A stretch of DNA of 62,057 nucleotides from Cyanobacteria bacterium P01_A01_bin.123 (GCA_039815185.1 JBCBZT010000046.1:1-62057); one strand, 5' to 3'; positions 1 to 62,057 are shown, counted from the stretch's first letter. Program-made: numbers and translations. The notes: generated from the letters alone by a model not told the origin.

Positions 1-161
1 ATAAACTGTCCCTGGTCAGGGGCGATTTGCATGATACTAGCTGGATGCTTGGCGGTGTCTTGACGCAGTTGGGTGAGGATTTCGGACTCGCGGAGGGAAA
101 CGGAGAGCAGGTAGTCGTAGAGATGGGAGCTTAGCTTGCCCGTTTTGGTAGACATAGTCAT
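1..161 (-). CDS. SAM-dependent O-methyltransferase (CCoAOMT/catechol-OMT type), 5' part; runs off window
   Basis: Manual translation MTMSTKTGKLSSHLYDYLLSVSLRESEILTQLRQDTAKHPASIMQIAPDQGQF closely matches the N-terminus of 50928..51614; GGAG RBS upstream. Confidence 0.85.
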   Translation of the reverse strand, partial: MTMSTKTGKLSSHLYDYLLSVSLRESEILTQLRQDTAKHPASIMQIAPDQGQF

Positions 162-52539: not shown

Positions 52540-53168
52540 TTAATCCCGGGGTCGAAGTTGAGCAAGCTTGAGCTTGTCAGCATAGCTTCGATCGATCATT
52601 TGGGTAGATGTATCACACCATTTTGCAATGATTGCGCTGGGGACACCTTTGATCAGTTGTGTGGTGATGAAAGTATCCCTACAGTAGTAAGGCGTTGTTT
52701 CTGGTTTGATGGGATCTACAGTTTTAGCCCAAGCTCGTCTTGCAAAGTTTCGATAACTAATCGAGTCTCCATTACGAGAAGGGAAACCAATGATTCAGGA
52801 TCTGGGTTTTCTGGTTTTATTGATTGCAGCAAGGCTTGTACCCGTTGAGAGACTGCAATCTGACGGGTGCGATTGTTTTTGCTGCCTTGAGTACGAACCC
52901 GGCGGTTGCCGATCTGCACTAGAGAACTGTCAAAGTGGACAAAACTGAAGTCTTCGGAAATATGCTTCCATTGCAGACCAATCGCCTCACTGGGCCGACA
53001 CCCCACTAAGAATAGAAATTCTACAAACGGCGCATAGTGTCGGTAGTTCATTCCTTTGCGACTATCTTCCTTAAAGGCATCGATAGTGCGATCGCGCTCC
53101 TCTTCTGTGAATGCATTAGGTTTTGGATCAACCTGATATCTATTGAACATTGATACGGAAATCGTCAA
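52540..53168 (-). pseudogene. Tyrosine recombinase/integrase, N-terminally truncated and frameshifted near 52785
   Basis: FLFLVGCRPSEAIGLQW (catalytic R) and SKNNRTR; after the shift, PSRNG..YRNFARRAW..TPYYCRDTFIT..IAKWCDTSTQMIDRSY (catalytic R and Y) to a stop at 52540. Confidence 0.85.
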
Positions 53169-53184
53169 ACGCGATCGCTAAAGC

Positions 53185-53220
53185 AAAAGCCCCGAGGGGT
53201 TTTTGACGCTCTCAGGGCTT
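53185..53220 (-). terminator. Intrinsic terminator downstream of the tRNA 3' fragment
   Basis: Minus strand AAGCCCTGAG...CTCGGGGCTT TTGC hairpin with a U-run. Confidence 0.55.
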
Positions 53221-53244
53221 GCGATTTGGGGCTTCAATTCAAGA

Positions 53245-53292
53245 TGGGCAATACTGGGTTCGAACCAGTGACCTCTTCCGTGTGAAGGAAGT
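53245..53292 (-). tRNA. 3' half only of tRNA-Val(CAC); att-site duplication, not a functional tRNA
   Basis: Minus strand ACTTCC TTCACAC GGAAG AGGTC ACTGG TTCGAAC CCAGT ATTGCCCA has the anticodon arm, T arm and 3' acceptor strand; no D arm or 5' acceptor strand upstream. Confidence 0.85.
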
Positions 53293-53511
53293 AAACTAAG
53301 GGCTGAAATCCTTATCTCAAAAGATTTATAAGATTCTTATTAGGTGGCTATAGCCATTTTATAGCTGCCGATCGAGTAATACCGCGTTAGGAAGTGCGCT
53401 ACTTGGTGGAATCTCCCTCGCGCGATCGCGCCTCCATAGCCCAGGATGACGGCGATTTGGTGCTAGGAATTCTTGGATTGCATTCCCTTGCGCGATCGCG
53501 CGGCAACAATA

Positions 53512-53868
53512 ATGCCTAATTCTGTTACAAATTCCTATCCTGGTCCTAGCGTCACCAAAGCGGTCGTTGTGATTGCCAGTGGAAACACCAACTCAGATGC
53601 TTTTACATTTCTTAGCCGTACGTGTCGTGCCCAAATCGGAGCTTTGTCGGGTACTCCTACCTTGACCTTGCAAGAGACGCCAGACCAAGGAATTACGTGG
53701 GTGGATACTGACCTTACAAAAACAACAGGTTCTGGCTGGACATCTTGGAGCGCAGAAGAATTAGCACCTTATACGGCGGGAGGAGCAAGACATCAAGGGC
53801 TGTACCGTCTACAGCTAAGCACTTCAGATGCCTCCGATCTAACCTTTAATATTCTGGGCAATGACTAA
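53512..53868 (+). CDS. Small phage beta-rich structural-type protein
   Basis: Thr/Ser/Gly-rich, TLTLQETPDQGITWVD; overlaps the next gene. Confidence 0.6.
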   Translation: MPNSVTNSYPGPSVTKAVVVIASGNTNSDAFTFLSRTCRAQIGALSGTPTLTLQETPDQGITWVDTDLTKTTGSGWTSWSAEELAPYTAGGARHQGLYRLQLSTSDASDLTFNILGND

Positions 53869-55240
53869 ACTGCTTGGACTAGCAACGCTTAATGTGCCAT
53901 TGCTTGGGGGTAATAGCTTTGTTGTGACCCCTACCAGTGCTTTGTTCATCGCTCCTAATACCAGTAATTGGTGGTATGACGAGCTGGCCGCGAATTATGA
54001 CGTCATCCATAGAATCCCGGCTAGCTTCCAGGTTAGCGATCTAACCAGTGCGGACTTTGTCTACGTGGGACGCGATTGTGAAATTGCTGATTTTGGCATT
54101 GATCAAGCGGCTCAGGATCTAAAGCTCAACGCCCTTAAAAACACAGAGAAGCCGCTTCTGTTGCAGTCCGGCCCGTTGGGTCAAGCACTTCAGTTTCACG
54201 GTAGTGGTGGCCCGATTCAAGCGGGCAGCATGAGGGAGTTTCAGCGCTACGAAAAGACTCACCCAATTTTTCAACCCTGGTCGTTTGCATCAGGGTCGTT
54301 GTTCACCTATGTCAACGGTGACAGCTCCTACTATCTAAACCCCGGCGATGCTGGGATTGATAGTGGCCAGTTCGTGGCCACAAACTCAGTTCAAAACAGG
54401 ATTTGGATTGGTGCGTGGGTGAAAGATCAGCTAATGGCTGCGGATGGCGGGAGCAACTTCCCTGCGCCTGGGCCGCGTCTGTTTATGTGGCTAAGAGAGG
54501 CGGATCTGGCAAACGTAACGCCAGATGGGATGGAAGTTTGGCACCGCTGCGTAGAGTGGGTTGCAGGCGATGGTACCTTAGCAAGTGTGCCATCGGTTGG
54601 CCCAAGTAACACCGTGCTTTATTTGAGTACTGCTGCCGATATAGCTGCTCCTGGCTATATGAGAACTAGGCTGGGTCAGCTCGGTTACACGGTAATAGAT
54701 CGAGATTACACTCAGTTTTCGACCGTCGATCTAAGCAGGGCAGGAATGGTTTTGATTAATGAGCAAGTCAACTCCGGCAATTTTTCAGCTCTGTTTAGCT
54801 CATCTGTTCGTGGGTGGCCGGGGAGCGTGTTTGTTAACGAAGTCTTTGTTAACGACGAGCTGGAAATGGTAAATGCCAGCAGTGGCTACAACGGCAATTC
54901 TGCGGCCCAAGACTTCTACACGCCCGATTCAACTCACCCTCTCGTTTCCGCTGTTGCGGTCAGCGACAGCGATCCGTTTCAGGTTCAAACCGGAACCGAA
55001 AACCATCAGTATCTAAATGCTGCGAACTGCGGCGGTTTGGGCTCACCGTTTCACATTGTCACCAATCAAGATGGCACAGAGGTTCGATTGTTGTACATTC
55101 CTGCTGGCTCTGCTCTGCCAGGGGGTGGCGGTGATACCGCTGCTGGGAAACGATTGTTTTGGCCCATCAAGGATGTTACCGCGATTACTCCTGCTGGAGC
55201 GACGATGTTCGACACAATAATCCAGTTCTTGACTACCTAG
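53861..55240 (+). CDS. Phage hypothetical protein with two tandem homologous ~210-aa domains
   Basis: Repeated motifs SDLTSADFV/VDLSRAGMV, THPIF/THPLV, APGPRLF/AAGKRLF, VTPDG/ITPAG. Confidence 0.75.
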   Translation: MTKLLGLATLNVPLLGGNSFVVTPTSALFIAPNTSNWWYDELAANYDVIHRIPASFQVSDLTSADFVYVGRDCEIADFGIDQAAQDLKLNALKNTEKPLLLQSGPLGQALQFHGSGGPIQAGSMREFQRYEKTHPIFQPWSFASGSLFTYVNGDSSYYLNPGDAGIDSGQFVATNSVQNRIWIGAWVKDQLMAADGGSNFPAPGPRLFMWLREADLANVTPDGMEVWHRCVEWVAGDGTLASVPSVGPSNTVLYLSTAADIAAPGYMRTRLGQLGYTVIDRDYTQFSTVDLSRAGMVLINEQVNSGNFSALFSSSVRGWPGSVFVNEVFVNDELEMVNASSGYNGNSAAQDFYTPDSTHPLVSAVAVSDSDPFQVQTGTENHQYLNAANCGGLGSPFHIVTNQDGTEVRLLYIPAGSALPGGGGDTAAGKRLFWPIKDVTAITPAGATMFDTIIQFLTT

Positions 55241-55338
55241 TCCACTCTGCTGGACTAGTCCCGGTCGCTTTAGCGGGGGGAAGACCCAGACGCTTTTAGC
55301 TTAAGCGCTAGAAAACATTGCTTGAAGTTCGCAGTGAT

Positions 55339-55800
55339 TTACCACTTGACATCTTGAACTTCTGACGGGATAAGCCGATGCGCGATCGCTTGAGAGGAAT
55401 ACACCCGCCCCGTTGCAGTCTGTGTCGCAGGTTGCAATAACGTTTCACCTTCAAGCATCAAATCCGACAGCCCTTTAATTTCTGCCTTATAAAGGCTGCA
55501 AGCTTGGGGAGTATAGCCACCCGTTTCGGATGGAGTCTGACTCAAAAAGTGCTGAGATAAAAGCTGGCAAACACAACCAAGCTCAACGATCATGGCAAGC
55601 TGTGGGTGGGTGCCGGTCAATGGCATTACCCATTTGCGTCTTAGGATCTCATCAATTTTTGCCTCAACTTGTCCCCCAACCTGCTCAACCAGCTCAGCCG
55701 AGATCACGGAGTCGCCCCAGCTGGTTGCCTGTCCATCAACTTGGAGCCGACCGTCAAGTCTTCTTTGAATGGCATCACTAGTTGTATATTTGAGTGCCAT
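55339..55800 (-). CDS. Phage head-tail connector/adaptor (Mu gp36/DUF1320-like)
   Basis: YTTSDAIQRRL..VEAKIDEILRRKWVMPL pattern; downstream of the capsid gene. Confidence 0.6.
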   Translation of the reverse strand: MALKYTTSDAIQRRLDGRLQVDGQATSWGDSVISAELVEQVGGQVEAKIDEILRRKWVMPLTGTHPQLAMIVELGCVCQLLSQHFLSQTPSETGGYTPQACSLYKAEIKGLSDLMLEGETLLQPATQTATGRVYSSQAIAHRLIPSEVQDVKW

Positions 55801-55910
55801 GGATTACGCGATCGCGCCTACTGTTTACTTCACAGCTTTGGGTGAACTTTTGGATGATTGCTCCGGTTGCTGCGATCGCTTGAGTTGCAATAACCGGCGA
55901 TCGCAGTTGC

Positions 55911-56972
55911 TTAATAAACTTTTCGCCCCCCCATTTTTCGGGTGTCAAAGACTAATGGAATGCCGGTTCCAACTCCAACAGAGCGATCAACAGGAGGCTC
56001 TTTACTAACTTCTTCAGTAAATGCGTAAATTCCTGCTTGCCCATCATTAGATTCGACTGGACCTAGAGCGCGTTCCCCCATGGCATTCCATAACAAAAAA
56101 TAATAGCCATCAGGGACAAAGAAACTTTCTGTGGTTGTTCCGTCTGCATTCTCCTCTTCATAGGTTTCGTCTACCACCAAAACAGGAGGTGCTAAGCGGC
56201 GCTGAAGAGCTTGGTTGAACTCTTCTAGAGTTGGGACTCTATTGTTGTCAGCACCGGTAGCAACAAGTTGACCCAAGTCAGAACTTACGCTATCTCTTAC
56301 CTCATAAGTATCAAACACCTGGCGCAGAGTGTTTGAATTCATAACCGTTGCAGCTGGATTTCCAACCTTGACAGTCCGCCTAAAAGTTTCGGCATGGTCG
56401 CGAAGGTTTTTGATCGGCGTTGCCGTAGCAGCTTGATTCCATCTTGAGGTGGTAGTCAGAGCAGACGGGTATTGATTTGAATCGGTTGTATAGGTCAGAG
56501 CAACATTTTGACTAGTTATATTGTCTTGAAAGGCGATCGCGCCTGAGTAAAGTGCCTCGCAAGTTAATCGTAGATGTAAATCTCCCAAAGCCATGGGTAG
56601 ATCTGATACTGTGCCAAAGAAGTAATCCCGAACTTGATCAGGAACACCGCTAACATTGGACTGCCACTTGCGCAACAGCTTCATGTCTTCTTCGTCATAA
56701 ATGTAAGACTTAGCAAGCTTAATTAGCCCGTACTCAAGCAATCCAATATTGCCCGCTTTAGATGCTGGAATTTCTCCTGTAAAACCTACGACATGAGCCA
56801 TTGACTTATTCTTTTTGGCTTGCAGAACCATCAAATCGTAGTCAACGTACGTTTGTAGAGGCATGTAAGGATTAAGCCACGGGTCACGGGTCATCAAGTC
56901 TAAGGACGTGATGTCAACCTGTCGATCAACTGTGGTCTTGTATCGCTTCAGAAAATCTTGAATCCGTCCCAT
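55911..56972 (-). CDS. Major capsid protein (lambda gpE-like family)
   Basis: 353 aa; ALTTTSRWNQAATATPIKNLR, VMNSNT, DGTTTESFFVPDG, EPPVDRSVG..IP; position in the head module. Confidence 0.8.
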   Translation of the reverse strand: MGRIQDFLKRYKTTVDRQVDITSLDLMTRDPWLNPYMPLQTYVDYDLMVLQAKKNKSMAHVVGFTGEIPASKAGNIGLLEYGLIKLAKSYIYDEEDMKLLRKWQSNVSGVPDQVRDYFFGTVSDLPMALGDLHLRLTCEALYSGAIAFQDNITSQNVALTYTTDSNQYPSALTTTSRWNQAATATPIKNLRDHAETFRRTVKVGNPAATVMNSNTLRQVFDTYEVRDSVSSDLGQLVATGADNNRVPTLEEFNQALQRRLAPPVLVVDETYEEENADGTTTESFFVPDGYYFLLWNAMGERALGPVESNDGQAGIYAFTEEVSKEPPVDRSVGVGTGIPLVFDTRKMGGRKVY

Positions 56973-56994
56973 GATTTCAATCCTTTATGGTCTT

Positions 56995-57882
56995 TTACGC
57001 AGCAACAAAGTCAAAGTCAAATAGTCGATCCAATTCACCATCCCAGTAAGGAAGAATAGAAACAGATTTGATGGAGCATGCGGTGTAAAAGCCCATCTGT
57101 AACTCATCATTCTCAAAATCAATTGAGCGTGACAGCATCCCGATTGGCATAGCATCAACCCCAATGGGCATCCCGATTGGAACGCTGATTGTTGCTGTGG
57201 ATGAAAGGGTGAGCTGGTCAGTGTCGGTGTTGACCCCGCTAGAAGCAATAGTGCCAATTGTTCGCATTGCAATTAGGTTAGTAGCGCTGTCAGTAACAGC
57301 ACCTGTTCCATCTCCAGCAGTAGTTGCTGTCACAGCGATCGCGTACTGGCTAATAAAGTCTTTGGCATACACAAAAACAGAATCACCACTAGCGATCGCT
57401 GTGATGAGCTTACTTAAGACAGGATCGACATTTATCTCGGTAGTGTGCAAAGTTGCGATCGCGCCTGTATCTGAACCTGCTGCTGTTGTGGTGAGGGTAT
57501 AGCCGTTGATCGTTGTTGCTAACGTATCGGATGCTGCCCAAGTCAGAGTCAAATCAATTTGTGCTGAAGGAGCTAAGATCCGCAGTACGTCTCCAGCAAT
57601 GAAAACCTGACTTTGGTTTTCGGTGACTTCAACAACAGTACTGCTAGATGCAGTCACAGCAGTCGTAGCGACTTTTGATCGTGGCAATAATCGAGCCAAA
57701 CTGCCAGAGGCAGCGCCAAAATAACCGGGTGCGAAACTCTTAGAACTTTCACCACTATTGACCGGAGTTTTGGCAGTGACTTTGGTCGCATCTAAAGTCC
57801 GATGAATAGGGGCTCTTAAGCCCCATACACCGGCAAACAATTCATTGTCGCTAGGGTAGTCAAACGTCTGAAATAATGGCAT
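56995..57882 (-). CDS. Putative head decoration/cement protein
   Basis: Thr/Ala-rich beta-type sequence between the scaffold and capsid genes. Confidence 0.55.
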   Translation of the reverse strand: MPLFQTFDYPSDNELFAGVWGLRAPIHRTLDATKVTAKTPVNSGESSKSFAPGYFGAASGSLARLLPRSKVATTAVTASSSTVVEVTENQSQVFIAGDVLRILAPSAQIDLTLTWAASDTLATTINGYTLTTTAAGSDTGAIATLHTTEINVDPVLSKLITAIASGDSVFVYAKDFISQYAIAVTATTAGDGTGAVTDSATNLIAMRTIGTIASSGVNTDTDQLTLSSTATISVPIGMPIGVDAMPIGMLSRSIDFENDELQMGFYTACSIKSVSILPYWDGELDRLFDFDFVAA

Positions 57883-59325
57883 TTACTTTACCTCTTGAAG
57901 ACCGTGTGCTTTGCGCCTAGCATTGAACCGCGCCATATCATCCTCGTGATTAGGGGGCAATGCTTCGCCATTTGGATTGTTTGATATTGGATCGTTGCCA
58001 GTCGCGATCGCGCCAAACTGAACCTTCTGTCCAAACTGCTCAACAAAATCAAGCTGGGCTTTGATTGTTTCTAGTGCAATTTGCGGTGCTTCACCTTCCT
58101 GCGGCGATCGCGCAAATTTGGCAACTGCTTGCTGTTGGTTTTCACCCTCGGGGAAGAATTTTGATAGAGCTGCTTTGGGCAGTTGTCCAGCGCGATTAAG
58201 TCTGATGGCTTGATCTTTTAGGGTTGACCACTGAGACGCGATCGCAGCTTCCCGTGTTTGCTGCTCATTCTGCGTTTTTAGAGCGTTGATTGTGGTGGTT
58301 TGCTGCTCAATGGTTGCCGCCTGCTGCTGCTCTTTTGCCTCCAGCGCGGCAATGCGTTCAGTTAAAGCAGCGATCGCGTCTCCCCCTGCATCTGCCGGGT
58401 CAAAGATTTCAGTTGTAGGCGTAGCGCTAGGATCAGTGGGCATTTCGGGAACCTCTCGGCTAAAAACTGGGACAGATGGGGGAGATGAGCGGGCAACGCC
58501 CAAGGCTTCTTGTAGGCGGGTGGTCAGGTCTGCGATCGCGCTGCGGGTTAATTCCCCGCGATCGCGTCCCAAGAGTTCCCCTGCAGGCGCGGACTTAATG
58601 GAACGAAGCGTTTCCATGAACGCCCAAAGTAAGTTATCGACTCCGCTCATGTCCTCCATGAGTGCAGACTGTGCTGCGATCGCGCCCTCTAGAGTCAGTG
58701 CATTCAGTGATTTTGGGGTACCCATGGGCTCATTAGCTTGTTCTGCGGGAAGAGTGCCCTTGGCATAGGGAGTTGTAGGATAGCGCCCGAATAACATGGC
58801 TTGAGGAACGGCACCCCACGCCACAGCGCTTATCTCGAATACCGCATTCTTTATCCAGTAATCGTCGTCAGCTAGCGTGATACCAATAGAGATCGCTTTG
58901 AGCAATCCTTGCTGGTAAAGAGCGATCGCGTCTGGTCTCAGAATTTCAATTTGGGTAAATAGCCCTAACTTGCCTGCGATTTCTACCATCTCAGGCTTAG
59001 GCAATAACTCAGGTGTAATTCGTTGGACAATGAATTGCCCACGCACCAGCCCTACCTTATTTCGATTTGCGTAACCGTTGGGCTCAAAGTCATGCTCAGA
59101 GTGAAAGAACGGGATTTCGCGCCCTTGGGCTAAGAGTGTGTTACTCGCGATCGCGATCGCATTCAGCCATTCTTCGTCGTAGGTATATTCCTTCCCTAGG
59201 GCATCAGTAAATGTGCCCTCAACCATCGCAAGAGCCAAGACAGTCAAGCCTTTCTCCGTGGCTTGAGATCGCTGAACGTCTGGCAGCAAACTGATGTATC
59301 GAATTGCCTGTAGTGCTGTGGGCAT
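57883..59325 (-). CDS. Putative prohead protease/scaffold (Mu gpI-like)
   Basis: N-terminal H..(K)AISIG..EISAV..GAVP protease-like segment plus a C-terminal coiled coil. Confidence 0.7.
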   Translation of the reverse strand: MPTALQAIRYISLLPDVQRSQATEKGLTVLALAMVEGTFTDALGKEYTYDEEWLNAIAIASNTLLAQGREIPFFHSEHDFEPNGYANRNKVGLVRGQFIVQRITPELLPKPEMVEIAGKLGLFTQIEILRPDAIALYQQGLLKAISIGITLADDDYWIKNAVFEISAVAWGAVPQAMLFGRYPTTPYAKGTLPAEQANEPMGTPKSLNALTLEGAIAAQSALMEDMSGVDNLLWAFMETLRSIKSAPAGELLGRDRGELTRSAIADLTTRLQEALGVARSSPPSVPVFSREVPEMPTDPSATPTTEIFDPADAGGDAIAALTERIAALEAKEQQQAATIEQQTTTINALKTQNEQQTREAAIASQWSTLKDQAIRLNRAGQLPKAALSKFFPEGENQQQAVAKFARSPQEGEAPQIALETIKAQLDFVEQFGQKVQFGAIATGNDPISNNPNGEALPPNHEDDMARFNARRKAHGLQEVK

Positions 59326-59525
59326 TTCCAACCGCGATCGCGTCGGGTTCAGAATGCCTTGGGTATTATTAGAGGGCGATCGCGCATCAGTGGCACCGTA
59401 CCAGGAAGGGCACTGCTCAGGCTTCCGAGGCGAAACCTATTTTTAGGTGGGGTACCCGACAAATTATCGGATAGAGCACTGATGTTTGCGTTGAATGCGG
59501 TAGCAAACAAGCGCGATCGCTACCA

Positions 59526-59792
59526 CTAAGATCTGGCTCCTTCCGGAAACTGATTCTCTGCCGGAAAAGTTAGCTCTTCACCTTCTAATAACTCAGGGTT
59601 AAACGCGGCGAATCTAGGCGATCGCATTGCAACATTCAAATCAACGGGGCTAGCTTCTTCACCAACGATATGTCCATACATACCGCTCGTAATCGCCAGT
59701 AAGTTTTCAACACGTTGCACCAATACAGCGTCGCCCTCAACCTGAATTCTTGCTGCAGTATCCGCGCGATCGCGGTTGGAGAGGTATTGCAA
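59526..59792 (-). CDS. Small hypothetical phage protein, possibly 5'-truncated
   Basis: 88-aa ORF whose TTG start abuts a HIP1 site. Confidence 0.4.
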   Translation of the reverse strand: MQYLSNRDRADTAARIQVEGDAVLVQRVENLLAITSGMYGHIVGEEASPVDLNVAMRSPRFAAFNPELLEGEELTFPAENQFPEGARS

Positions 59793-59896
59793 CGCGATCG
59801 CTTTTTTACCAGTAGATCGTGTTTAAATCTTGATCACCCTCGCCAACCCAGCCATGCCTATGCCATAACGGGACAGAACCCCACCATTCACTTCCC

Positions 59897-60340
59897 ATGG
59901 CAGATCCGGTTACCCTCACCGTCAGCACCATTGCCACCCTCGCCTTTACTAAGTTCCTTGAAACCAGCGCGGGTGAACTTGCTAAGAAATTTACCCAGAG
60001 CGCGATCGAACAGATGGACACCCTACGCCAGAAAATCTGGGCCAAGCTGAGGGGTAACTCCAGAGCAGAAGCTGCCCTCACAGCGGCTGAGGATGGCTCT
60101 AAAACAGATATTGAGAAGGTGGCAGACTACCTCAAAGTTGAGATGAATGAGGATGACACCTTTGCGACTGAACTCCAAGCCTTAGCCCAACAGATTCAGG
60201 CTGGGAAGATTCAAGACAAGAGCACCATGCACATGGAAGTGACGGGCAACGATAACACCAACATCCAGGCTAAAGCCGAGCAGGGTGGGATTCAGTACAA
60301 CGCCAAAGAAATCACCATTAACCAAAACCAACAGCCTTAG
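59897..60340 (+). CDS. Bell-like helical effector domain with a C-terminal N/Q/G-rich putative amyloid signalling motif
   Basis: MADPVTLTVSTIATLAF..LRQKIWAKLRG..AEAAL..DDTFATELQALAQ helical bundle, then STMHMEVTGNDNTNIQAKAEQGGIQYNAKEITINQNQQP. Confidence 0.75.
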   Translation: MADPVTLTVSTIATLAFTKFLETSAGELAKKFTQSAIEQMDTLRQKIWAKLRGNSRAEAALTAAEDGSKTDIEKVADYLKVEMNEDDTFATELQALAQQIQAGKIQDKSTMHMEVTGNDNTNIQAKAEQGGIQYNAKEITINQNQQP

Positions 60341-62057
60341 CTCCAGTCGTCTGAATCGGCCCGGACAAAGTTAACGCCGCCCAACAACATCCCTCGAAAA
60401 GGTTCTCGCCACTTCGTTGGTCGTGGTGAGGATTTACAGAGCTTGCATGAGCAGTTGCAGCAGTCTCAGCAGGTGGCAATCACAGCGATCGCAGGCATGG
60501 GTGGCATTGGTAAGACCGAGCTGGCGCTGCAATATGCTCGTAGATACGCTCAACAGGCTTACCCCGGTGGCGTGTGTTGGCTAGAAGCCCGCGATCAGGA
60601 TATTGCAACTCAGATTCTGGGCTTTGCTCAGGCAAAGCTAGAGCTAACCCCACCTGATGAGCTACCTGCTAAGGAACGGATCGCCCACTGCTGGGACAAC
60701 TGGCCTAACTTTGGCGATTCTCCCGCAGCAGCCTTGGTGGTCATCGATGATGTGAGCGACTACAGCGCCATTGAAGACTATCTGCCCACCCATGAACGCT
60801 TCACTCTGCTGTTGACCACTCGGCAACAACGGCTGGCTACCATCGTCAAGCCCTTCTCCATTGAGGTGTTGAGTGAAGAAGCGGCACTGGAGCTGTTGAG
60901 GCAGCTTGCAGAAGACGCTGAGCGCATCGATGCAGAGTTAGAGCAGGCCAAGACGCTTTGTAAATGGTTGGGGTATTTACCCTTGGGGTTGGAATTGGTG
61001 GGGCGCTACCTAGCGATCGATTTGGACTTGTCACTGGCCCAATTGCAAGAGCAGCTCGATGCTCAATCCCTTGAGGCCGAAGCGCTCACTGACATGGAAG
61101 TGGGGATGACGGCCAGCCTCAACTTGACCAAAGCAATTGAGTTGAGCTGGCAGCGACTCTCCTCAGGAGCCCAAGACCTGGCTGGCTTGTTAGGGGTGTT
61201 TGCCCCAGCCCCGATTCCTTGGCCACGGGTAGAAGCGTGCTACCCAGATGTTGAGCCTGCCACCCTGAAGCGGCTGCGTAACCTGGAGCTGCTGCGATTC
61301 AATCTGCTTCAGCGAATAGAGCAGGAGCGCTATCAACTGCATCCAGTGATTCACCGCTTCATCCGCACCAAGCTGGCTGACGATTCACCGCTGATTGCAG
61401 CTTACTGTGAGGTGATGGTTGAAGCTGCCCAAGAATTAGAGCAAACCCCGACCCTAGCTCAGATTGGGGTATGGCGTGAGATGGTGCCTCATGTCGCAGA
61501 GGCAGCAACCCAATGGGTATTGAGGGTTAAGGATGAGGCGCTGGCATGGCCCTTTATCGGGTTGGGACGGTTCTACCAGGGTCAAGGGTTCTATGCCGAT
61601 GCCGAAGTCTGGCGTGAGCGCTGTGTCACGCTCACACAAGCGCGTCTCGGGACTGAGCATCCCGATGTGGCCATGAGTCTGAACAATTTGGCCAATTTAT
61701 ACTCGGATCAAGGACGCTATGGGGAGGCCGAACCCCTGTTCTTGCAAGCCATCGACCTCGGTAAAGCCAGCCTGGGTGAGGCCCATCCCGATGTGGCCAC
61801 GAGGCTGAACAATTTGGCCCTTTTATACTCGGCACAAGGACGCTATGAGGAGGCCGAACCCCTGTACTTGCAAGCCTTAGAGATGACTAAAGCCAGCCTG
61901 GGTGAGGCCCATCCCGCTGTGGCCACGAGTCTGAACAATTTGGCCAATTTATACCAGGTACAAGGACGCTATGGGGAGGCCGAACCCCTGTTCTTGCAAG
62001 CCATCGACCTCGGTAAAGCCAGCCTGGGTGAGGCCCATCCCGCTGTGGCCAAGAGGC
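60341..62057 (+). CDS. NB-ARC + TPR NLR-like protein, in frame with 59897..60340 across a TAG; runs off window
   Basis: Manual translation is open to the window end: PNNIP..FVGR, GMGGIGKT, LVVIDDV, LTTR, GYLPLGL, YQLHP, then 42-aa TPRs. Confidence 0.9.
61658..62057 (+). repeat. 126-bp near-identical TPR-coding tandem repeats
   Basis: CATCCC at 61658, 61784, 61910 and 62036. Confidence 0.9.

Follow-up and report, generated by a model that had tools for sequence, protein, structure and literature searches.

How is a receptor made from a reading frame that lies behind a stop codon? We address this question for a locus at the end of a 62,057-nt stretch of DNA from Cyanobacteria bacterium P01_A01_bin.123 (GCA_039815185.1 JBCBZT010000046.1:1-62057; the whole stretch is hereafter called the window). 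At 59897..62057 on the plus strand, an open reading frame (ORF) for a Bell-like effector of 147 amino acids begins with ATG at 59897 and ends at TAG 60338-60340, after which the same frame stays open for 572 codons, up to position 62057, where both the window and the contig (C10) end, and encodes a nucleotide-binding oligomerization domain-like receptor (NLR). The original prediction, which read the ORF, its stop and its continuation as we do, proposed amber readthrough at this junction, with a CAG-to-TAG knockout of a defense gene as the alternative. Based on our analysis, we hold it quite probable that the stop is passed by programmed readthrough, which would yield a free Bell-amyloid effector together with a minor effector-NLR fusion that seeds it.

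The frame downstream of the stop carries, by Pfam, an NB-ARC domain at residues 31-248 (E 8.9e-17) and TPR_12/TPR_10 arrays; the NLR cannot be called complete, as had been claimed, because the contig stops at 62057 inside the TPR array and leaves the C-terminus out of view. Past the stop, no ATG, GTG or TTG occurs ahead of the FVGR motif (F at 60413), and the first TTG (60443) and first ATG (60497, in Walker A) lie where the original prediction had placed them. The locus is thus neither an all-in-one effector-NLR gene, which would be one uninterrupted ORF, nor an effector gene followed by a separate receptor with its own start and its own N-terminal motif. A contig from a public run, with a mean depth of 33, shows no difference from the window over 59862-60737, TAG included, an agreement that is not independent because the run is possibly the source sample. 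Two paralogues in the same genome, with NLRs 76% and 42% identical to that of the window, have an in-frame TAG CTY CAG at the same place, a junction kept while their effector tails differ from the window's, which argues that the stop in the window is not there by chance.

To follow the junction beyond this genome, we collected loci in three genome searches (41, 173 and 401 genomes) and by scanning genome contigs once, which gave many full-span matches that contained exactly one stop. The collection of 271 loci held 225 unique NB-ARC starts, 120 of them with a Bell-like ORF upstream. In 89 of these 120 a single stop lies between the two in-frame parts, 24 are out of frame, 6 have multiple stops and 1 is a weak fused match. 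Because retrieval favored loci with a reported stop, a bias that counts against our interpretation, 89 of 120 is not a population frequency. The linker spans 22-31 codons in 86 of the 89 one-stop loci, and the remaining 3 have their own ATG. We then defined a set of 106 loci, chosen only by a stop-to-FxGR distance of 20-33 codons, in which the stop is TGA in 87, TAG in 18 and TAA in 1; the stops of 30 other Bell ORFs (out of frame or multi-stop) are TAG in 13, TAA in 10 and TGA in 7. The stop is thus mostly UGA, with UAG in the window's lineage, and its identity switches six times on the NB-ARC tree. Together with 65 loci found later by a DNA pattern (see below), 171 distinct loci keep the in-frame stop, at NB-ARC identities down to 25%. 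Such conservation rules out the knockout alternative and strongly favors readthrough, with the correction that amber is not the usual codon.

Carriers include Acaryochloris marina, Calothrix, Scytonema, Coleofasciculus, Rivularia, Moorena and Nostoc, with the element of Nostoc sp. PCC 7120 lying on plasmid pCC7120gamma. In an even draw of 150 other cyanobacterial genomes the element was found in 16 under strict filters, several genomes having contributed to the model used, and effector matches on plasmids came from 12 records, all cyanobacterial. Viral contigs yielded no exact match to the DNA pattern of the element and only distant NB-ARC matches, and the effector was without a match among GenBank phages.

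In the downstream frame, the NB-ARC ratio of nonsynonymous to synonymous divergence (dN/dS) is 0.21 across 26 disjoint close pairs, indicating purifying selection. Among two-gene pairs, the NLR starts at an ATG of its own and repeats the effector tail (tail-vs.-NLR-N-terminus score median 74, with 21 of 28 above 40), while the NLRs of stop-type loci have no motif copy (median 20, maximum 40, n = 104). The first ATG, GTG or TTG varies in position between -28 and +30 codons relative to FxGR and follows the F of that motif in 58 of 106 loci, and the first ATG lies mostly in Walker A; a start equivalent to TTG 60443 is not conserved. RefSeq annotates stop-type NLRs from starts 48-63 nt past the stop. 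Orthologues with a sense codon at the stop position do exist, in the form of four one-piece proteins with the same linker, carrying W (P0001, from Nostoc sp. CmiVER01 in RefSeq, and P0017), E (P0062) or S (P0125). All four, compared here as protein sequences, stand alone in their clusters, and P0017 might be a gene call in which TGA was read as Trp. Of the 150 best representative homologues, 134 are no longer than 200 amino acids, and a search for longer fused forms found one among 8000 candidates scored, which is weak evidence on their rarity. Because the downstream frame is the natural continuation of the upstream one, yet selection keeps the stop, both products seem to be needed.

The sequence that follows the stop is constrained in a manner suggestive of RNA structure. 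Counting the first base after the stop as +1, C occupies this position in 101 of 106 loci and the first codon is CTA or CTG in 90, compared with 808 and 90, respectively, among 3886 long ORFs of this genome. Immediately 5′ of the stop a pyrimidine stands in 102 of 106 loci (58% in the same genome's long ORFs), which might reflect an effect of the P site on termination. The CUR codon and an 8-nt spacer lead to stem 1, of 5 bp (+9..13 with +22..26, paired in 105, 93, 105, 102 and 104 of 106 loci), and a second stem (+17..20 with +36..39, paired in 83, 99, 67 and 70) would complete an H-type pseudoknot. The top three pairs by mutual information with average product correction (MI-APC) are +12:+23, +10:+25 and +17:+39. 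On a tree built from NB-ARC protein only, with the 100 of 106 loci that were long enough (identity 25-98%, median 46%), double changes were compensatory in 9/9, 9/9 and 8/11 cases for these three pairs, which take the first three ranks among 615 variable pairs (the mean being 0.36 and the runner-up having 4). At the third-codon base +9 a single change was counted, compared with 23-39 changes at 15 conserved four-fold NB-ARC sites, and synonymous divergence in the 26 close pairs is 0.12 in the element vs. 0.30 in NB-ARC. These data point to an RNA fold that consists of a covarying stem 1 and a likely pseudoknot, which the original prediction had missed, as it had the occurrence of the cassette with non-Bell effectors and NACHT receptors. 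Overall, 86.8% of cells are paired vs. 72.0% after shuffling (0/500) and 28-50% with slid partners (stem 1 96.4%, stem 2 74.8%); as the structure was derived from the same sequences, one of these controls ("control b") leans towards it. G-U pairs are frequent and A-C pairs rare, so the element appears to act as sense-strand RNA.

We also searched metagenomes out of sample with a DNA pattern in which the covarying bases and the 3′ side of stem 2 were unconstrained and TAA, TAG, TGA or TGG could stand at the stop position. The search returned 84 loci with 68 unique motifs, 65 of them new, and the new motifs had TGA 62 times, TAG 3 times and neither TAA nor TGG. Pairing held at +10:+25 in 62 of 64 (43.8 expected), at +12:+23 in 64 of 64 (37.1) and at +17:+39 in 56 of 64 (47.4). 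Walker A followed within 750 nt in 50 of the 65, being in frame without a stop in 49, after a second stop in 1 and in another frame in 0. A covariance model of the element returned the three known sites in this genome and no others, as well as matches in 35 of 50 hand-picked genomes; in every one of the 25 new model matches retrieved, and 6 later ones, a stop at the modeled position closes an in-frame ORF. Searching window 59600-60700 and six relatives against Rfam gave only chance miRNA matches far below the gathering score.

At the protein level, an AlphaFold2 model of the effector (62-sequence alignment) has six helices at residues 9-102 with a mean predicted local distance difference test (pLDDT) score of 60.6 and, in this monomer, an unstructured tail of low confidence. 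The family consensus starts MEPxTL, and the last 30 residues across the family contain N 15.8, G 10.2, I 9.7, Q 8.6 and V 6.3%. Searches with the effector gave no Pfam family over the cut-off and no significant match among PDB sequences; an Atlas search led to cyanobacterial clusters, with HetE-N in 18% of members. The window effector shares 52% identity, with the tail counted in, with the effector of a two-gene pair (L119) in which the NLR bears the matching motif. The locus thus combines a helical effector of about 100 amino acids, an N/Q/G/V/I-rich tail and an adjacent, collinear NB-ARC receptor with repeats, and fits the Bell/BASS description by its MEPIS-like start, size and tail composition, as given in 10.1101/2020.01.06.895854. 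From its sequence, we predict the window tail to be a BASS-like amyloid signaling motif.

We propose that the locus would work as a single transcription unit in which a minority of ribosomes pass the stop, giving mostly free effector and a little effector-tail-NB-ARC-TPR fusion, at a ratio that the readthrough rate would fix. A near-cognate tRNA would decode the stop, helped by the C-rich context and by the fold 8 nt downstream, which might sit at the mRNA entry channel during stop decoding, as proposed for the murine leukemia virus (MuLV) pseudoknot, which would act there from 8 nt downstream (PMC3159437). When a trigger, likely phage, is sensed, the fusion would oligomerize and its tails would nucleate the amyloid fold; the excess of free effector with the identical tail would then be recruited and kill the cell at the membrane in abortive infection, as for Bab/Agp and fungal NLRs (10.1101/2024.11.07.622273). 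Because one motif copy serves both partners, seed and effector could never drift apart. The RNA part is probably a portable, constitutive, pseudoknot-programmed readthrough cassette and a new class of bacterial recoding RNA, which would make a one-gene switch of immunity, with seed and bulk effector, out of any effector gene (Bell-amyloid, TIR, hydrolase, CHAT). That the readthrough rate is itself under control, with a ligand, a protein or shifts in release factors or tRNAs upon infection setting the amount of receptor at the stop codon, seems rather unlikely.

The cassette is modular, its upstream partners being Bell-like, alpha/beta hydrolase, TIR or CHAT domains and its downstream partners NB-ARC-TPR, NACHT-HEAT, CHAT or membrane proteins, and longer versions of the element differ by whole codons. 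We observed, for instance, a NACHT-HEAT subclass (L276-L286, L393, L395) with an element one codon longer, in which stem 1 has 4 bp and stem 2 could have 5 bp, as well as cassettes with non-NLR partners (L289, L295, L296, L299) that are predicted membrane proteins, one of them PsbP-like, and a CHAT domain. At another locus (L073:2489-2548) an ORF of 37 amino acids consists of the amyloid-like motif alone, followed by the stop and element, the readthrough product of which would be a motif-NLR without an effector domain. One NLR of the two-gene type (L252:1379-1420), which has an ATG and a motif copy of its own, retains the stem and linker with no stop, making it a possible evolutionary intermediate. 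Finally, at three loci (L095:1482, L102:2431, L108:2479) the upstream ORF is joined to NB-ARC in the -1 frame, with an A-AAA-AAG heptamer directly before TAG; in the latter two it resembles, by eye, the upstream ORF of a UGA-element locus (L298), and the -1 heptamer and the UGA element would be two recoding solutions to the same problem.

Several observations weigh against programmed readthrough with amyloid seeding. The readthrough step itself we infer from sequence. In fold searches the effector had no significant match to Bell/HeLo structures (best Z 5.2, common for helical bundles). The minimum-energy nested structure of the window's 48-nt element lacks stem 1 (z 0.37, from a program that cannot form pseudoknots), and stem 2 is the weaker of the two, with +19:+37 and +20:+36 failing in about one third of loci, largely one clade in which stem 2 is out of register. 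An ATG, GTG or TTG occurs in the linker of 48 of 106 loci, 9 of the 106 downstream frames close before 300 codons, and several of the 25 model-found matches have short downstream frames; in one locus (L385) the loop has lost 1 nt, which shifts the NLR out of frame, and another (L349) has a second stop. Some cassettes lead to membrane or PsbP-like proteins rather than NLRs, and TIR and some hydrolase effectors have no obvious amyloid tail, so the amyloid step is not general; in such versions, we speculate, homotypic assembly on the fused copy might play the same role.

Of the competing explanations, the best surviving is that ribosomes terminate and then re-initiate just downstream, at the CUR codon or at a TTG or GTG within the linker or beyond it; the fold would then adjust coupling or mRNA stability, and the NLR would be made as a separate protein. 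CTG or GTG directly follows the stop in 35 of 106 loci, 30 of the 48 linker starts share one position, and RefSeq annotates stop-type loci as two genes. We nevertheless regard re-initiation as improbable, as the commonest first codon is CTA (56/106) and the window copy has CTC, the first potential start comes after the F of FxGR in 58 of 106 loci and the first ATG mostly inside Walker A, and the resulting NLR would be without effector or amyloid motif, unlike the receptors of two-gene pairs; the strict frame, the avoidance of UAA and the one-piece alleles would also be left unexplained. A-to-I editing of the stop to a Trp codon, with the fold as editing signal, would give the same two products as readthrough and accounts for the 105:1 ratio, given that UGA and UAG need one edit and UAA two, and for the Trp of two one-piece alleles. 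The stop lies outside the fold, though, in a UGAC/UAGC context rather than the UACG motif of bacterial TadA editing (PMC12214031), and the fixed 8-nt spacer fits the ribosome geometry of readthrough signals (PMC3159437), which together make editing very improbable.

Slightly less credible again is a role in which readthrough makes the fusion and the cassette sets a ratio of short to long isoforms for some other signaling, with no amyloid seeding in abortive infection. Its partners on both sides, which include membrane, PsbP-like and CHAT proteins downstream and TIR and hydrolase domains, some without an amyloid-like tail, upstream, speak for such a role, as does PADLOC, which gave no system match beyond a generic TPR model. 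The window tail, in turn, matches BASS motifs in composition and is homologous to a motif that two-gene pairs duplicate on Bell and NLR, and such duplication on effector and NLR is the defining sign of amyloid signaling according to 10.1101/2020.01.06.895854. The idea of an all-in-one gene that carries a nonsense mutation or a sequencing error, to which the four one-piece proteins and the adjoining prophage remnant might point, is already refuted, and has next to no probability, given a stop kept across 171 loci down to 25% NB-ARC identity with at least six switches on the tree, purifying selection on the NLR and the agreeing depth-33 contig. Equally negligible is decoding by selenocysteine, pyrrolysine, a suppressor tRNA or a reassigned code: the stem-loop right after UGA is positioned like a bacterial selenocysteine insertion sequence (SECIS; PMC7026636), but this genome, the one searched and rated 99.99% complete, has no SelA, no SelB or PylS over the cut-off and no tRNA with a CUA, UCA or UUA anticodon, TAG ends 1317 of its 3886 long ORFs, and UGA and UAG interchange at the stop.

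We also rejected hopping over the stop, since the codon before it varies (13 amino acids) with no recurrence at a fixed place downstream; a net frameshift at the stop, since the other linker frames hold stops in 96 and 90 of 106 loci; and a DNA recombination site, which is disfavored by the G-U-rich, strand-asymmetric pairing. A scan of window 59700-60600 found no terminator or sigma-70 promoter.

Amber readthrough has reportedly been seen in the CS3 pilus genes of E. coli. The bacterial examples named in the accessible parts of two sources are only phage Qbeta A1, B. subtilis sacB and cat-86 (PMC7026636, PMC13517186); like Qbeta coat/A1 and the other two, the cassette would rely on near-cognate decoding of a leaky stop at a few percent, but those are single cases for which the same text names no conserved covarying 3′ structure or gene family. 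The closest likeness in anatomy is to MuLV gag-pol, a Beier-Grimm type III signal with a stop, an 8-nt spacer, a compact pseudoknot and a fixed ratio of short product to fusion; of this signal, stem 1 at +9 is strongly and stem 2 moderately supported here by covariation. The likeness implies no relationship in sequence, and the cassette differs in that it occurs in bacterial cellular genes read by 70S ribosomes, has a smaller fold and uses UGA/UAG-C, not UAG-G, with a +1 C and a UGA-CUR context as in type II signals, which combine UGA-CUA/CGG with a 3′ stem (PMC3159437). The UGA-CUA context and the low readthrough of UAA also appear in PMC7026636. Bacterial SECIS elements share a stem-loop just 3′ of an in-frame UGA within a coding region, differing in that no Sel machinery was found in this genome and that UAG and UAA are used too.

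On the protein side, the system resembles the Bell/BASS-NLR gene pairs (10.1101/2020.01.06.895854) and Bab/Agp antiphage amyloid signaling (10.1101/2024.11.07.622273) in its helical effector with a MEPIS-like N-terminus and N/Q/G/V/I-rich C-terminal motif, its collinear NB-ARC/NACHT-repeat receptor, its cyanobacterial hosts and the same alternative effectors (alpha/beta hydrolase, TIR, CHAT). There, effector and receptor are distinct genes, and the receptor brings a start codon and a motif copy of its own; the receptor described here lacks both and follows, in the frame of the effector, after a stop and an RNA element. Because one defining feature of each is absent, the cassette stands apart from both the two-gene Bell/BASS family and type III signals, and by analogy we infer that it works like both. 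Full-text literature searches, which mostly left subscription journals outside their reach, returned in the text covered no readthrough in bacterial NLR or Bell genes and no pseudoknot-stimulated bacterial readthrough; "readthrough", "read-through" and "stop codon" are absent from the main texts of 10.1101/2020.01.06.895854, 10.1101/2024.11.07.622273 and PMC8195603, and bioRxiv supplements may list some of the loci.

Table 1. Coordinates of the effector, the recoding element and the receptor within the window
Feature	Position	Strand	Basis
Bell-like helical effector domain (about residues 1-103) with MEPxTL-type N-terminal hydrophobic helix	59897..60205	+	AlphaFold2, family consensus
N/Q/G/I/V-rich C-terminal tail, predicted BASS-like amyloid signaling motif	60206..60337	+	Unstructured in model; homology to L119 tail
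In-frame UAG stop, inferred readthrough site	60338..60340	+	Stop kept in 106 + 65 loci
8-nt spacer starting with C (family consensus CUR CAG UC)	60341..60348	+	Family alignment
RNA stem 1 (60349-60353 with 60362-60366, 8-nt loop)	60349..60366	+	Paired in 96.4% of cells; +10:+25 and +12:+23 covary
Stem 2, likely pseudoknot (60357-60360 in the loop of stem 1 with 60376-60379, across an A-rich connector of 9 nt, 60367-60375)	60357..60379	+	4/4 Watson-Crick here; +17:+39 covaries
Linker, NB-ARC ATPase (~60413-61084) and TPR array (from ~61540), cut by contig end	60341..62057	+	Pfam

As for the surroundings of the locus (Table 1), window 52719-59792 holds a prophage remnant with a head maturation protease (phrog_976), probable capsid and decoration genes, an integrase fragment and a Mu gp36-like gene (weak Pfam match), and on another contig (C82) a degraded NLR fragment lies next to what appears, by eye, to be the end of a portal protein. 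Some 60 nt upstream of the effector start (59835-59896) are common to one of the paralogues (C85) and three other loci (L047, L053, L036), and contain a TG-CCATAA(C) extended -10-like element that the promoter scan did not pick up. Farther away, window 660-50813 is probably a siderophore uptake island, with ORFs resembling TonB receptors, AraC regulators, periplasmic binding proteins and MFS/ABC transporters and one gene of 1364 amino acids (ORF starts only).

Together, these results describe a real, widespread and apparently undescribed recoding cassette and a third architecture of bacterial NLR-amyloid systems, beside two-gene pairs and all-in-one fusions, in which a single motif copy would solve the matching of seed to effector. 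If our interpretation is true, structure-programmed readthrough would be widespread in bacterial cellular genes, a type of signal that the reviews consulted give only for eukaryotes and their viruses, SECIS aside, and the 40-nt element would offer a handle on the competition between RNA structure and RF1/RF2 at the 70S ribosome. Many cyanobacterial NLRs would then be annotated with wrong starts and be invisible to screens that require the motif on both genes.

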